The position numbers were made by a program, and so were the translations under genes. A stretch of DNA of 4,068 nt from a virus (taxonomy: Duplodnaviria > Heunggongvirae > Uroviricota > Caudoviricetes > Straboviridae): the IMG/VR virus record IMGVR_UViG_2802429229_000002; one strand, given 5' to 3'. Numbering within the stretch: position 1 is the stretch's first letter; each line of letters opens with the position of its first letter. Below the pieces are notes generated by a model. That model saw only the letters and a list, made by a program, of their open reading frames with translations. It made no database searches and was not told the DNA's origin. Positions 1 to 4,068 of the stretch are shown in pieces.

Positions 1-73
1 TGGATACGGTGGAAATGACGCGGGTGCCGTCGTTAATCTCCAGCACCTGCACGCCATGATGATAGTCGCTCAT
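1..73 (-). CDS. FI: Contractile tail sheath protein, N-terminal 24 codons only; gene continues past the window start
   Basis: Reverse complement of 1..73 translates as MSDYHHGVQVLEINDGTRVISTVS, which matches from memory the N-terminus of P2-family tail sheath protein FI. A GGAG Shine-Dalgarno lies 8 nt upstream of the ATG (complement of 71..73). Same strand and expected order relative to H and G. Confidence 0.8.
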   Translation of the reverse strand, partial: MSDYHHGVQVLEINDGTRVISTVS

Positions 74-94
74 CCGTTTAACTCCGTGGTTAAT

Positions 95-167
95 GGGTGC
101 AATTATTTTCTGTTGTGCAGAGTATGAGGCGCTATTTGACCTGGCTGGTCAGTGGATGAAACAACAG
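95..167 (-). promoter_or_regulatory. Candidate late promoter for the tail sheath operon (P2 PF-like), weak support
   Basis: On the minus strand an AATAAT -10-like hexamer (complement of 102..107) lies about 30 nt upstream of the FI ATG. An imperfect Ogr-type dyad, TGT-N12-CCA (plus 146..163; consensus TGT-N12-ACA, 5 of 6), is centred about 50 bp upstream of that hexamer. A 7-bp inverted repeat (110..116 and 161..167) brackets the region. No exact consensus dyad is present. Confidence 0.25.
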
Positions 168-196
168 ATAAAGAAAAGGCGGGCAATTCGCCCGCC
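168..196 (-). terminator. Rho-independent terminator between the cargo ORF and the tail sheath gene
   Basis: Perfect 7-bp GC stem GGCGGGC (178..184) and GCCCGCC (190..196) with a 5-nt loop. On the minus strand it is followed directly by TTTTCTTTAT (complement of 168..177). It lies about 175 nt downstream of the cargo ORF stop. Confidence 0.6.
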
Positions 197-371
197 TGTC
201 CTGATTTGTACTCACTCATTTTCCAACTGACTATTTACATAGTCCAAACGCTATCAAATCTGACTGTCTGCTTTGAGCGAGGTGCTGACATCCGCATGAA
301 TGTATGGAGCTGCCGCACACTCTAAAAATGATAGAACGTCTATATATTAATTATCCCTAAGTCCAGTTTTA

Positions 372-899
372 TTAATCAATTTTATTACTTTTACCTGCAA
401 CCTTTTTATTACAGTGATAATAAGAAATAGCACTAGCAAAATAGGATTTTGTCATCGACACGAAAAAATCCAACAAATCTGCCATGTTATCAATATCAAT
501 ATTTGGTTTAGTTTTACTGACTTTAGTAATCTTCATGTAGAAGTCCACAAACTTACTTTTTTCTTTATCCGTAATCTGATAATTCAATTGATGACTGATT
601 TTATTTCTTATGCTGTTAAAGTCTTTTATTCTTAAATATATTTCATCATAAGGGGGTTTTGCAGGCTCATGTTGTATTAAAGCTATTTTTTGTGAAAATG
701 TGAGTTTTGCATCACCCCAAGCTAACGAAGGATATCTTAATCCAAGATAATCAGTAATATACTTTTCAAGGCTCAAGTGCGCAGTAAGAAAGGCACCTAT
801 GAAGGCAACGTCAACCCCATCAACACGTTCCCATATGTTTTCATTTTCATCAGTCATACCTGTATACACAGCGGTTGATGCAAGATCTTTCCAGTCCAT
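372..899 (-). CDS. Hypothetical 175-aa cargo protein with a HEPN-like R-N-x3-H motif; candidate lysogenic-conversion or defence gene
   Basis: Uninterrupted 175-codon ORF. AAGGA Shine-Dalgarno (complement of 906..910) 6 nt upstream of the ATG, and an in-frame TAA two codons upstream of the ATG fixes the start. By eye the GC content is about 30% against about 50-60% in the flanking tail genes. Residues 98..103 are RNKISH (nt 591..608). No predicted signal peptide or clear transmembrane segment. I do not recognise a characterised family. Confidence 0.8.
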   Translation of the reverse strand: MDWKDLASTAVYTGMTDENENIWERVDGVDVAFIGAFLTAHLSLEKYITDYLGLRYPSLAWGDAKLTFSQKIALIQHEPAKPPYDEIYLRIKDFNSIRNKISHQLNYQITDKEKSKFVDFYMKITKVSKTKPNIDIDNMADLLDFFVSMTKSYFASAISYYHCNKKVAGKSNKID

Positions 900-934
900 G
901 CTTTATCCTTTTAAAGGTGAATTTAACGAGTTTA

Positions 935-963
935 ACTTTATCTCAACTCAATACTTATCTCAA
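935..963 (-). promoter_or_regulatory. Candidate sigma70 promoter proximal to the cargo ORF
   Basis: Minus strand reads TTGAGA, a 17-nt spacer, then TAAAGT. The predicted transcription start is about 28 nt upstream of the ATG at 899. The match is modest. Confidence 0.2.
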
Positions 964-1150
964 AATTTATGAGTGGACATAACATCCACAAAAAACTATT
1001 AAAGCCCTTTTACCTCTTATTATTGATGAAAATGTACATTTTTATAAAGAATGTCGAAGAACCTCCTCAGTGGAACTATCAACTACACATTGCAAGACTA
1101 GAGTATGTGCAAACCTTTTGACAAGGTTCTGAAATATTCATGGTGGCCTT

Positions 1151-1185
1151 ATTATATCAATTTATCTTCACTTTATACATTAACA
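1151..1185 (-). promoter_or_regulatory. Candidate extended -10 promoter distal to the cargo ORF
   Basis: Minus strand reads TGATATAAT (complement of 1151..1159), a perfect TGnTATAAT extended -10. The -35 is poor (TGTATA at 17-nt spacing). It would give a leader of about 245 nt. Confidence 0.3.
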
Positions 1186-1203
1186 TAGCATGATGTTGAT
1201 AAT

Positions 1204-1227
1204 GTCCGCTCCTAGCACAGAGCGGAC
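1204..1227. other. Perfect 8-bp inverted repeat (hairpin) without a U-tract, 62 nt downstream of the tail fiber assembly gene
   Basis: GTCCGCTC (1204..1211) pairs with GAGCGGAC (1220..1227) around an 8-nt loop. Neither strand has a clear T-run after it. It sits at the GC-composition boundary of the AT-rich island. Confidence 0.5.
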
Positions 1228-1288
1228 TGTCAGATTAGGCCTTACTCTGTACTATAGCTATGTTAACTAACACAAGAGATCATATCAC

Positions 1289-1816
1289 TTATTGCGGCAT
1301 TTCCGGCCATTCAGGATTTGCAGGATCCACACGGCTGACCAGAACACTGTAGCGTTCCCATGCTTCCAGTCGGCTACGCTCCTCATCTGTTGCCATGTTC
1401 AGCCTGACAGCGCGCTCCAGTGGCTGAATAACGCTTTCCGCTTCGGAAAGTAACGCGGCCTTTTGTGATTCTGCCTGTTGTTGCTGTTCGTCTGCCGTAT
1501 AAATCCGCTTAATCACGGCACCATCCTTAAACATCCATTTCCCTGAGTCATCAGCACGTCGGTTGGCGGTAATATCAGGAACCTCGACAACGCTGAAACC
1601 TTCAGGGTTGAGCGTTGAAGCATCTCTGGTGATGCCGACAATAATATTATTTTCATCGTAAACAATCTTTATCGTGTCTTCCTGAAAATTACTTACTTCC
1701 TCATACCAGTTTTTTCCGTCTTCGGACCATAACCAGATAACATCAAAATTCTTTGTTAGCTGATATTGTTCTTTTGTTTTTGGATTACCTGACTTAATGT
1801 TTTTTAAATGCTGCAT
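1289..1816 (-). CDS. G: Tail fiber assembly protein (chaperone)
   Basis: 175-aa ORF starting 3 nt after the tail fiber stop, with an AGGTG Shine-Dalgarno inside the 3' end of H. The sequence ([20 protein letters not shown] ... [13 protein letters not shown]) matches from memory the P2 G / lambda Tfa family, including the characteristic C-terminal tail. Confidence 0.9.
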
Positions 1817-1819
1817 AAT

Positions 1820-4068
1820 TTACACCTGCGCAACGTTATACCATGTGCCATTGATGTATTTTTGTATTGGTCTGAATACTGCTGGATCATCACCATCGAC
1901 TTCACCGACAATACCAAGCCCCGTGATTACATGGCCTGATTTTTCATACATCACGCCTTTTTGCATGGTCTGAACAACACGTGTGCCAAGTCTGACATCT
2001 CTCACATAGCGGGAATCAAAGTTACCGTAATCCGAGGGATTAACACGCCCCGTAATATTTATGGTTTTATTACTTTGAATACTTCCCGAGACAAAGCGCA
2101 TAACATGGACGCTATTAGCATAAACATCCAGATTACCATCACCATTTTGTTTAAAGCCCGTGTCATTATCACCCAAAACAATCGAATTACCGCCAAGAGC
2201 ACTGGATGTTCCTATACCCAGAGCACCATTCAATTGACCACCAGATAACGGCAGTGCACCGACATCTCCCGCTGTAGGTTTTCGCGTTGTGGTATAAAAC
2301 TCAGACCAGTCAGCCTCGAATCCGTAACCGTCACGAGCAGAACGATAAAAAATACCGCCGTTCTTATAATTAACGCGGAACTGGGCGGCGGGGCAACTTC
2401 CTTCACCGATATTAAAATGAAGAATTAACGTTGATGCCCCACTAATAGTTGCGTTATAGGCTCCGCTACTCCAGTTCCATCCAACGGCTTTATCATTCGC
2501 AACGGTGTCTCCTGTTTTTCCTGAAGCAAATGCACCAATATTTTTCGGCGTCAGGTTAATATCTGATGTTCCATCAAACGAAACGTTATTAATTTTACGG
2601 GCTGTTTTCAGCTTTGTTGCTGTCGCCGCATTGCCGGACAGTTCACCAGAAAGGCCAGCACTGAATGTCTGTTTCGCGCCCCATGTCTGGGCTTCGTCAA
2701 TGATTGGTACTCGTCTTGCTGTAATCGTGCGGCTTCCCGGATTTCCTGAAATACGCACCATAAAAAAGCGGTAGTTGGCTTTACTTACAGTGCTGCGCCA
2801 TACATGCATTGAGCGTCCCGAACCAGAATCATCACTCGGACCGACTGAGATGTTTATCAGGTTGCCATCAATGACGCCCCAGTCCATACCGTCGGGAATA
2901 TTGGTCATGTTATCCAGCCGAACGGTTATCAGACTGCCCGGCACAAAATCGTATGTCTGCCAGTCCAGACTGGATAGTTTTGCCACTGCGCCACCGATGC
3001 CCAGATTCAGAGGCAACGAAAAGGAGTTATATACTTCTCGCCATTCGGTCCATTTGCTCCCGGCGTAGACGCGCTCAAAAGTGCGCCCCTGTGTGGTTTC
3101 TGATTTCCCTGTGGTTGTGTAACGCTGCCAGACAGACACACCATCAAAACGTCTGATTACTTCCAGTATCCCAAGTAGTGTCGCGCCAACGGTGTCCAGC
3201 ATCGGACCATTGGTCGCTTTACCTGTAACGCTGTAAATACCTGGTGAGGTTACATCATTCAAATCACCGTCGTAATAACGGCTTTCTGACTGGTAGCCCA
3301 CTCTTGACCACGGCTCCCACTGTGGGTTCTCTGCATCCCACGAGGCCGAAAGACAGCGAACATAAACATTTCCACGGCTGGTCGTGTAACGCTGCGTTCG
3401 CGAGTAACCACCACCTTCAAGAACTTCAAGGAGTCCCTGACCATAACTTCCTTCTTCCGGATAGTTGCGGTCAAATGAAGCGATTGAGCCACTACTGTTT
3501 CGCCATAAACCAAGATGCTCTGCGCCTCCGAGCGTGTTCAGGTCAATGGTTGTGCTCAGGGGGCGTGTTGCAGACTGAACCTGACGCCAGTAACTCCACG
3601 GACCGTCTGAACCATTCCATGTGCCAGAAAGGTTGCGCATATAAACATTGCCTGTTCTGGTGGTATAACGCTGCATTCCTGAAAAATTACCGCCATTGAA
3701 TACCTCCAGTACACCGACTGCACCGTCTTCAGGGAAATTTTTAGCAGCCGTCGCGTTAGTGGATGTAGCTTTAGACCAGATACCTGAATAAGCCTTAACA
3801 GGACCAAACGTATTCAGATCAGCATCAACCGGCATTTCGCCATTGTTTTTCATAAACGTCAGGCTGGTAACGCCAACATTGTCCAGAAAAGCTGATTTAT
3901 CCTGGATATCTGCACCATTCTGATTTTTCGCCAGACGTGAATTTGCGTTGTCATTTGCTGTCTTGACCGCTTTTGGCGTTGCTGCCAATGACTCACTGGT
4001 GCTGTTTGTTGCACTGCTTAACTGAGTAAAGCCTTTTTCTGTCAGTGTGGCGTCAGGATGGCGGCGGG
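1820..4068 (-). CDS. H: Tail fiber protein (P2 H-like); the 5' end of the gene lies beyond the window end
   Basis: The ORF-track start at 3988 is an internal TTG. The frame stays open to the window edge, reading RRHPDATLTEKGFTQLSSATNSTSESL before AATPKAVK, so the true start is outside the window. At least 749 codons are in view. It has an N-terminal SSATNSTSE / LAATPKAVK motif, three internal QRYTT repeats, and a C-terminus (GIGTSSALGGNSIVLGDNDTGFKQNGDG ... NGTWYNVAQV) typical of P2-family H. Stop TAA at 1820..1822. Confidence 0.9.
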   Translation of the reverse strand, partial: RRHPDATLTEKGFTQLSSATNSTSESLAATPKAVKTANDNANSRLAKNQNGADIQDKSAFLDNVGVTSLTFMKNNGEMPVDADLNTFGPVKAYSGIWSKATSTNATAAKNFPEDGAVGVLEVFNGGNFSGMQRYTTRTGNVYMRNLSGTWNGSDGPWSYWRQVQSATRPLSTTIDLNTLGGAEHLGLWRNSSGSIASFDRNYPEEGSYGQGLLEVLEGGGYSRTQRYTTSRGNVYVRCLSASWDAENPQWEPWSRVGYQSESRYYDGDLNDVTSPGIYSVTGKATNGPMLDTVGATLLGILEVIRRFDGVSVWQRYTTTGKSETTQGRTFERVYAGSKWTEWREVYNSFSLPLNLGIGGAVAKLSSLDWQTYDFVPGSLITVRLDNMTNIPDGMDWGVIDGNLINISVGPSDDSGSGRSMHVWRSTVSKANYRFFMVRISGNPGSRTITARRVPIIDEAQTWGAKQTFSAGLSGELSGNAATATKLKTARKINNVSFDGTSDINLTPKNIGAFASGKTGDTVANDKAVGWNWSSGAYNATISGASTLILHFNIGEGSCPAAQFRVNYKNGGIFYRSARDGYGFEADWSEFYTTTRKPTAGDVGALPLSGGQLNGALGIGTSSALGGNSIVLGDNDTGFKQNGDGNLDVYANSVHVMRFVSGSIQSNKTINITGRVNPSDYGNFDSRYVRDVRLGTRVVQTMQKGVMYEKSGHVITGLGIVGEVDGDDPAVFRPIQKYINGTWYNVAQV

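Follow-up and report, generated by a model that had tools for sequence, protein, structure and literature searches.

What occupies the 389 nt that separate a tail gene from the cargo gene next to it in an E. coli P2-like (Peduovirus) prophage? The stretch of prophage DNA that we analysed (4,068 nt, hereafter the window) contains a cargo slot, that is, a variable site within the P2 tail genes, and the cargo gene in this slot starts a long way from the tail gene that precedes it. An earlier note on this DNA had described an AT-rich gap of about 390 bp between the G stop and the cargo ATG that lacks any credible open reading frame (ORF), and had taken the length itself as a sign of a regulated leader or a small RNA. 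The description agrees with our measurements, whereas the interpretation holds only in part. The locus is laid out as follows.

4066..1820, minus strand: tail fibre gene H
1289..1816, minus strand: tail-fibre assembly gene gpG (Pfam Caudo_TAP, E 1e-36), whose stop sets the start of the gap
1288..900, minus strand: the gap, 389 nt, between the gpG stop and the cargo ATG
372..899, minus strand: cargo gene B, 175 aa
from about 72, minus strand: first codons of the tail sheath gene FI

The gpG stop codon TAA lies at 1291-1289 and the cargo ATG at 899-897; the corresponding gene carries a gpG annotation in E. coli JJ2434 as well as in phage vB_EcoM-569R9. That phage and about 50 complete E. coli genomes share this arrangement at 96.7-99.8% identity. 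Within the gap, the longest minus-strand ORF has 20 codons, and the plus strand holds one spurious ORF of 50 codons (969..1121) besides others of at most 27 codons. The GC content of the gap (33.4%) compares with 44.9% for G, 48.1% for H and 32.8% for the cargo gene, and it is uneven: positions 1288-1202 are backbone-like at 43.7% and positions 1201-900 cargo-like at 30.5%. Long gaps are common at this G-FI hotspot. Among about 30 distinct cargo types with a co-oriented first ORF, the distance from the boundary hairpin described below to the first ORF of at least 90 aa ranged from 8 to 772 nt and reached 300 nt or more in about 8.

A gene remnant and a deletion junction in the gap

Comparison with related loci divided the gap into segments of different origin, listed here in the direction of the genes.

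1237..1288, minus strand: P2 backbone, 3' flank of G, which aligns with L-413C, P2, pro147 and P2_2H1, all with unrelated cargo
1202..1236, no strand assigned: left boundary element, consisting of AATCTGACAG and a hairpin (stem 1227-1219 / 1212-1204)
1142..1201, minus strand: former upstream region of a gene that we call gene A, with its Shine-Dalgarno sequence TAAGG (1150-1146); contains TGATATAAT
992..1141, minus strand: gene A pseudogene remnant, codons 1 to about 58, with a 20-codon ORF at 1141-1079 (MNISEPCQKVCTYSSLAMCS) that is frameshifted thereafter
992..1003, minus strand: deletion junction, TTTAATAGTTTT, which resembles one site inside gene A as well as another one 5' of the cargo gene
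900..1003, minus strand: the cargo gene's own upstream region, common to L003, L004, L017, L013, L016 and L021 in differing contexts

The first 87 nt (1288-1202) are common to the window and L-413C, P2, pro147 and P2_2H1, and among phage sequences many Peduovirus records match window 1201-1400 at 91.5%. Beyond this backbone, the sequence follows gene A. Intact A is found together with the cargo gene in Superficieibacter (L003, A at 3194-3706), Dryocola (L004, A at 3181-3693) and Citrobacter freundii (L017/L018), at 81-84% nucleotide identity, and in these cassettes a gene A of 170 aa lies about 300 nt upstream of the cargo homologue. Positions 1142..1201 together with the hairpin show 84% identity to the region 5' of intact gene A in Dryocola, and 1142..1201 also aligns with L003, L017 and Enterobacter L156. 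Using blastn, we directly observed homology between window 1235-1083 and L004 3087-3239 (83% over 153 nt, E 1e-40) and between window 1239-992 and L003 3102-3367 (273 columns, E 9e-29); tblastn placed gene A residues 1-18 in frame -3 and residues 28-42 in frame -2. The remnant retains the Shine-Dalgarno sequence and the ATG (1141) of gene A and encodes MNISEPCQKVCTYSSLAM where intact A has MDTSEHCKEVYAYFGLAM. Its reading frame is visibly broken: a stop follows codon 20, two small deletions (19 nt and 5 nt) are present, and about 552 bp are missing.

The junction is likewise a direct observation. Gene A-derived homology extends to 992 and cargo-proximal homology begins at 1003-1030, which places the junction within 1030-992. 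In Dryocola L004, copies of the 12-nt junction site lie at 3343-3354, inside A, and at 3895-3906, about 105 nt before the cargo ATG, so a deletion of about 552 bp between the two look-alike sites accounts for the window. All three marks by which we recognised a pseudogene remnant are thus present: homology to an intact gene, a destroyed frame and a hypervariable slot, here a cargo site with conserved flanks (G and FI) and more than 40 sequences after the boundary hairpin.

Based on these findings, we consider it very likely that the gap is no dedicated leader and that its 389 nt are a composite produced by gene loss. In the ancestral cassette, the two boundary elements would have enclosed gene A (170 aa), on the side of the left hairpin, and gene B, with about 300 nt of spacer between the genes. 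In the lineage that now occupies the gpG-gpFI slot of E. coli P2-like prophages, two similar 12-nt sites (TTTrATwGnwTT) would have been the end points of a deletion that cost the cassette about 552 bp, namely the 3' two thirds of A together with most of the spacer. From 1288 to 900, the gap now consists of 87 nt of P2 backbone with the hairpin, the old A upstream region with its ribosome-binding site, a decayed stretch of A coding sequence (about 150 nt) and about 100 nt of B upstream region with a Shine-Dalgarno sequence; B would still be expressed and functional alone. In terms of length, about 210 of the 389 nt are the promoter/ribosome-binding region and the pseudogenised 5' end of the deleted neighbour, and 87 nt more are P2 backbone; the earlier inference from length to a regulated leader or small RNA is therefore unsupported.

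The same elements could logically be read with the opposite polarity, the short form of the window being ancestral and A having been inserted in the Dryocola, Superficieibacter and Citrobacter cassettes. Nothing specific speaks for this order of events, and we regard it as extremely unlikely: the window holds A codons 1 to about 58 with start, Shine-Dalgarno sequence, frame-breaking indels and a premature stop, traces that an empty site would not hold, and A is a widespread intact family.

Intact A adjoining the cargo gene was present in none of 5426 complete E. coli genomes, and the remnant was present in 52 genomes; among phage records, the only match to intact A was a 29% tblastn match in PSP3. 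The same deletion occurs in all ten E. coli-type copies examined, with 0-2 differences in the remnant, and the distal 147 nt are invariant across the ten. The remnant and the A upstream region, at about 83-84% identity to Dryocola L004, have changed less than B has at its synonymous sites (pS 0.35). This low divergence and the invariance fit recent spread and one-sided decay; the remnant or the A upstream region may also be under some constraint, for example as a retained promoter.

The gene A family comprises 136 clusters from Gammaproteobacteria and beyond, with proteins of about 170 aa that lack annotation (P0025-P0144). An R95-N-x-L-A-H100 motif (RNxLAH) is invariant, and the predicted structure is all-helical (pLDDT 91). 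Searches with gene A against PDB (fold and sequence), Pfam and PADLOC gave no significant match; a marginal Pfam match was to HEPN_RiboL-PSP (E 0.01). Gene A is thus a candidate uncharacterised HEPN-like defence gene, with the motif and the marginal Pfam match as the sole basis. We also considered A and B as paralogues, which we rejected (hhalign probability 0.3%; nothing in BLASTP), and as an obligate pair, which does not hold because either gene is found without the other. This independence is directly observed: A without B stands beside an HNH gene in Enterobacter and beside an integrase in Serratia. In Citrobacter freundii (L017/L018 3100-4640), genes for AlpA-type, winged-helix and DUF2971 proteins and for a P4-type integrase surround intact A and B, a setting that we interpret as a satellite-like or integrative island.

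Promoter-like sites, transcription and RNA structure

The earlier note had pointed to a perfect extended -10 about 250 nt upstream of the ATG and to a second promoter-like element about 35 nt upstream. Both exist. The first, TGATATAAT, lies at 1159..1151 on the minus strand, 252 nt 5' of the cargo ATG, and fits TGnTATAAT; at least one TGNTATAAT also occurs in 36 of 200 dinucleotide-shuffled windows (18%). The second, TTGAGA-17-TAAAGT at 963..935, ends 36 nt short of the cargo ATG. Promoter-like sites are not enriched in 1..1900 (6, against a shuffle mean of 5.9). The extended -10 is absent from the intact relatives, in which the same positions read TGAATTAAT, TGAAATGAT, TGAGTTAAT and TGAATTGGC. 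In the window, TGATATAAT sits 9 nt ahead of the old ATG of gene A and overlies its Shine-Dalgarno sequence; the nonamer is window-specific and the gene A Shine-Dalgarno sequence is conserved.

Closer to the cargo gene, the upstream region contains a degenerate -10-like TGTTAT (984-979), where close homologues have TATAAT about 85 nt upstream; the spacer at this degraded site lacks 2 nt in the window compared with the close homologues. A conserved TTGAGA-A/T-rich motif (949-938) and a Shine-Dalgarno sequence AAGGA (910-906) follow. Conservation 5' of the cargo ATG ends at 15-81 nt in most homologues (blastn) and reaches about 130 nt among the closest homologues (alignment). Because close homologues retain these last ~130 nt in unrelated genomic contexts, the cargo gene very probably has its own promoter somewhere within them. 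Six other E. coli copies read TTCTAC where the window and the copies closest to it have GTCCAC (positions 975 and 978), and the GTCCAC version makes a 6-bp stem, GUGGAU/GUCCAC, over the degraded TGTTAT.

Read-through from the tail operon has to be considered as well. A scan of 900-1288 returned no terminator-like site, so none lies between G and the cargo gene, and the first strong intrinsic terminator downstream of G is located beyond it.

177..197, minus strand: intrinsic terminator, a 9-pair stem followed by TTTTCTTT, after the cargo gene and before FI

This terminator (-17.1 kcal/mol, z = -4.82) lies in conserved backbone and is the only strong one between G and FI. Because it follows the cargo gene, transcripts of the late V-G operon would have to cross any co-oriented cargo. 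We propose that three sources would contribute, in some combination, to transcription of cargo gene B: a weak proximal promoter, with its -10 decayed to TGTTAT; the retained gene A promoter region, in which window-specific changes gave TGATATAAT and may thereby have strengthened it; and read-through from the late V-G operon, which would be unhindered in 1288-900.

The second of these sources could carry more weight than a contributor's. The retained gene A upstream region with TGATATAAT might act as the principal promoter for the cargo gene in the lysogen, and the mRNA would then begin with a 5' UTR about 245 nt long; this would be compatible with the origin of the gap as a scar, but would add a present-day function for the region. 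The site is exact and arose by substitutions in the lineage of the window relative to TGAATTAAT and TGAAATGAT, the proximal -10, TATAAT in relatives, has decayed to TGTTAT with loss of 2 nt from the spacer, and the region is invariant across ten E. coli copies. However, a lone match is expected by chance at the shuffle frequency given above and promoter-like sites are not enriched, the invariance of 147 nt is not significant at ~1% divergence, and no terminator blocks read-through from the late operon. On balance, we consider such an exapted promoter possible but somewhat doubtful.

We then asked what the RNA of the gap would support. An Rfam search of the whole window at E values up to 10 gave three sub-threshold matches, none credible. 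The best E values in 900-1288 were 6.9 and 8.1, and the matches in the gap were to BsrC (18.5 bits; gathering score 38) and to the DUF2693 RNA (16 bits; gathering score 81). The minimum free energy of the gap (z = -1.07) was equalled or bettered by 17 of 100 shuffles, and the proximal 120 nt (1010-890) gave z = +0.19. The analysis of RNA structure and covariation across homologues that the earlier note had suggested as a check yielded 0 consensus pairs in RNAalifold (cargo-proximal 100 nt, 9 homologues). A dedicated cis-regulatory leader or small RNA in 900-1288, such as a riboswitch-like element, an attenuator or an sRNA, might be expected from a gap that is long and AT-rich and has promoter-like sites and local hairpins. 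It is nevertheless very improbable in light of the missing Rfam match at E <1, the unremarkable folding energy, the lack of consensus pairs and the end of conservation 15-81 nt from the ATG in most homologues; moreover, backbone and A remnant account for most of the sequence.

Some HEPN toxins have RNA partners, and the cargo protein is HEPN-like (see below), which raises the idea of a type III toxin-antitoxin-like arrangement with an antitoxin RNA (ToxI-like or an AbiF-like ncRNA) 5' of a HEPN toxin gene. The earlier note had seen no tandem repeats of the ToxI kind, and a search with TRF bears this out: its sole matches were a 2-copy 12-mer (score 34) in the gap and, within the cargo ORF, a 6-mer, and direct repeats in the window are limited to scattered 2-copy families. 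Tandem direct repeats are thus absent and no terminator stands between the gap and the putative toxin gene. In addition, the cargo homologues of Serratia lie 68 nt from the boundary hairpin without any of the gap sequence, and HepS, the nearest characterised relative, functions without an antitoxin and shows no toxicity on overexpression (PMC13043305). Taken together, these observations leave a toxin-antitoxin reading with next to no probability.

Boundary elements of the cargo slot

The left boundary hairpin folds at -17.3 kcal/mol (z = -3.26). Viral contigs that we scanned for the hairpin-shaped element, GTCCGCTC-N8-GAGCGGAC, continue beyond it with more than 40 different sequences; it occurs in over 40 distinct P2-like loci, and divergence starts right after GGAC(A/G)T. 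It does not look like an intrinsic terminator, as it has no U-tract, AUUAUCAA comes next and the terminator scan does not call it. Among 32 variants, its stem positions were paired in 85.2% of cases compared with a shuffled mean of 85.1%, with one compensatory cell. With the paired fraction equal to the shuffled value, there is no support for an RNA stem under selection or for an attenuating terminator. Because the stem does not covary, our data suggest a DNA-level site rather than an RNA structure.

A second copy of the element lies on the far side of the cargo gene.

257..291, no strand assigned: right boundary element, an inverted copy of 1202-1236 (28/35 positions, 80%)

The right element is kept in P2-like phages, and it also follows the cargo homologues of Serratia, Citrobacter and other loci. 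The cargo slot thereby lies between the two members of an imperfect inverted pair (about 36 nt), AATCTGACAGTCCGCTCTGTGCCAGGAGCGGACAT and AATCTGACAGTCTGCTTTGAGCGAGGAGCGGACAT (L036-L155; L003, L013, L019-L021). Left and right copies agreed at 22-32 of 37 positions in 26 of the 27 pairs scored; the remaining pair (12/37) is apparently spurious. In P2-like phages, the pair brackets at least 25 different cargos of 0.9-5.9 kb. Outside P2, it brackets the A/B or the B-only cassette on the Serratia rubidaea chromosome, in the Citrobacter integrase/AlpA island and in Superficieibacter. One could speculate that the pair serves as recombination or mobilisation sites by which defence cassettes would shuttle between tail hotspots, satellite-like islands and chromosomes, a role that we rate as unlikely. 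The pair may nonetheless bear on the route of cargo exchange, which is mechanistically unexplained in published work, and we found no mention of a boundary hairpin or terminator of the G-FI slot in the hotspot papers that we searched.

Four loci with unrelated cargos (L054, L083, L107 and L133) share with the window a loose AACAT-N6-8-TGTTAAT motif in the first ~45 nt past the left hairpin, followed in these four by GGGAGCAG. The motif might be a small dyad site, or else a trace of an older layer that these slots have in common.

The cargo gene and comparison with known systems

Homologues of the cargo protein occur in several Enterobacterales at 60-88% protein identity, and it matches phrog_5483; PADLOC, NCBIfam and Pfam gave no usable match. 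In the motif R98-N-K-x-S-H103, residues R98, N99, K100, S102 and H103 are invariant among 19 aligned sequences. The best Foldseek match of the predicted structure (pLDDT 76.6) was HepS (9oij; probability 0.98, E 0.026, TM 0.40), and a profile comparison with HepS gave E 0.012 over 45 residues spanning the catalytic motif. The cargo product is thus predicted to be a HepS-like solo HEPN protein. Its dN/dS of 0.08-0.15 against seven relatives indicates that the gene is under purifying selection. The gene has no conserved partner: the upstream neighbours vary and include A, a DUF4145-like gene, SIR2_2, TetR, ADH, Ogr and CI-type repressors, and in B-only cassettes the boundary hairpin is just 68-194 nt from the ATG. 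Because purifying selection persists after loss of the neighbour, the scar supports the view of the cargo gene as a self-sufficient HepS-like HEPN gene.

Defence-type neighbours of cargo homologues were found at the following positions.

L016 3284-3784
L021 3-1304
L017 4829-5611
L021 2240-3016
L023 4798-5778

The genes near B homologues encode a further small protein, with a KMRNKFAH motif (with weak DUF4145 and HEPN_Cthe2314 matches) and SIR2_2, DUF2971, DUF4145 and DUF4238 proteins, which is typical defence-island company. When the locus of phage vB_EcoM-569R9 (L001 3173-3724) was compared with window 372-899, all 40 of 40 differences over 1.2 kb fell inside the cargo ORF; the phage gene has a 24-nt insertion and encodes 183 aa instead of 175 aa, and the gap and both flanks are identical. 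This pattern points to a recombination patch or a diversifying change confined to the defence gene.

Gene-loss remnants are ordinary in phage defence hotspots. In a survey of thousands of P2/P4 elements, nearly all carried pseudogenes, ~90% of which were very small intergenic remnants; defence loci held more than half, and the authors took them for recombination leftovers (PMC13586616). According to the same work, P2 and P4 do not exchange defence cargo, and the exchange mechanism was left open (PMC13586616). Like those remnants, the segment described here is a short non-coding stretch in a P2-like hypervariable locus with homology to an intact gene elsewhere. It differs in being a single case resolved to its donor gene, frame-breaking indels, microhomology junction and deletion size, and in its location, the tail-gene (G-FI) hotspot and not the main gpA-gpQ locus. 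The case opens no new mechanism; it provides a resolved example of a microhomology deletion in a P2 defence hotspot, where published surveys give such remnants only in aggregate. For annotation, it implies that promoter and RNA predictions in phage cargo slots need a prior check against intact relatives.

The Z/fun-orf30 'TO region' of P2 is the same G-FI slot with AT-rich lysogenic-conversion or defence cargo, and in the P2-type variant of the slot about 270 nt separate the G stop from the cargo start. The cargo of the window is a different one, and its gap is explained by a specific gene remnant. ToxIN resembles the window in having a non-coding stretch 5' of a ribonuclease-type gene on a mobile element, whereas the stretch in the window has neither tandem repeats nor an intervening terminator and is not conserved with the putative toxin gene.

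The closest parallel for the cargo itself is HepS of the Salmonella prophage Gifsy-1, a constitutive abortive-infection nuclease encoded by a single gene without a partner (PMC13043305). Both are prophage-borne, similar in size, all-helical (in the case of the cargo protein, as predicted) and without a conserved partner gene, and the RNKxxH motif of the cargo aligns on the catalytic R100-H105 of HepS (PDB 9oij). The similarity is weak (16% identity, TM ~0.4, profile E 0.012), and the genomic settings differ, HepS occupying a lambdoid accessory slot and the cargo gene a P2-type tail hotspot.
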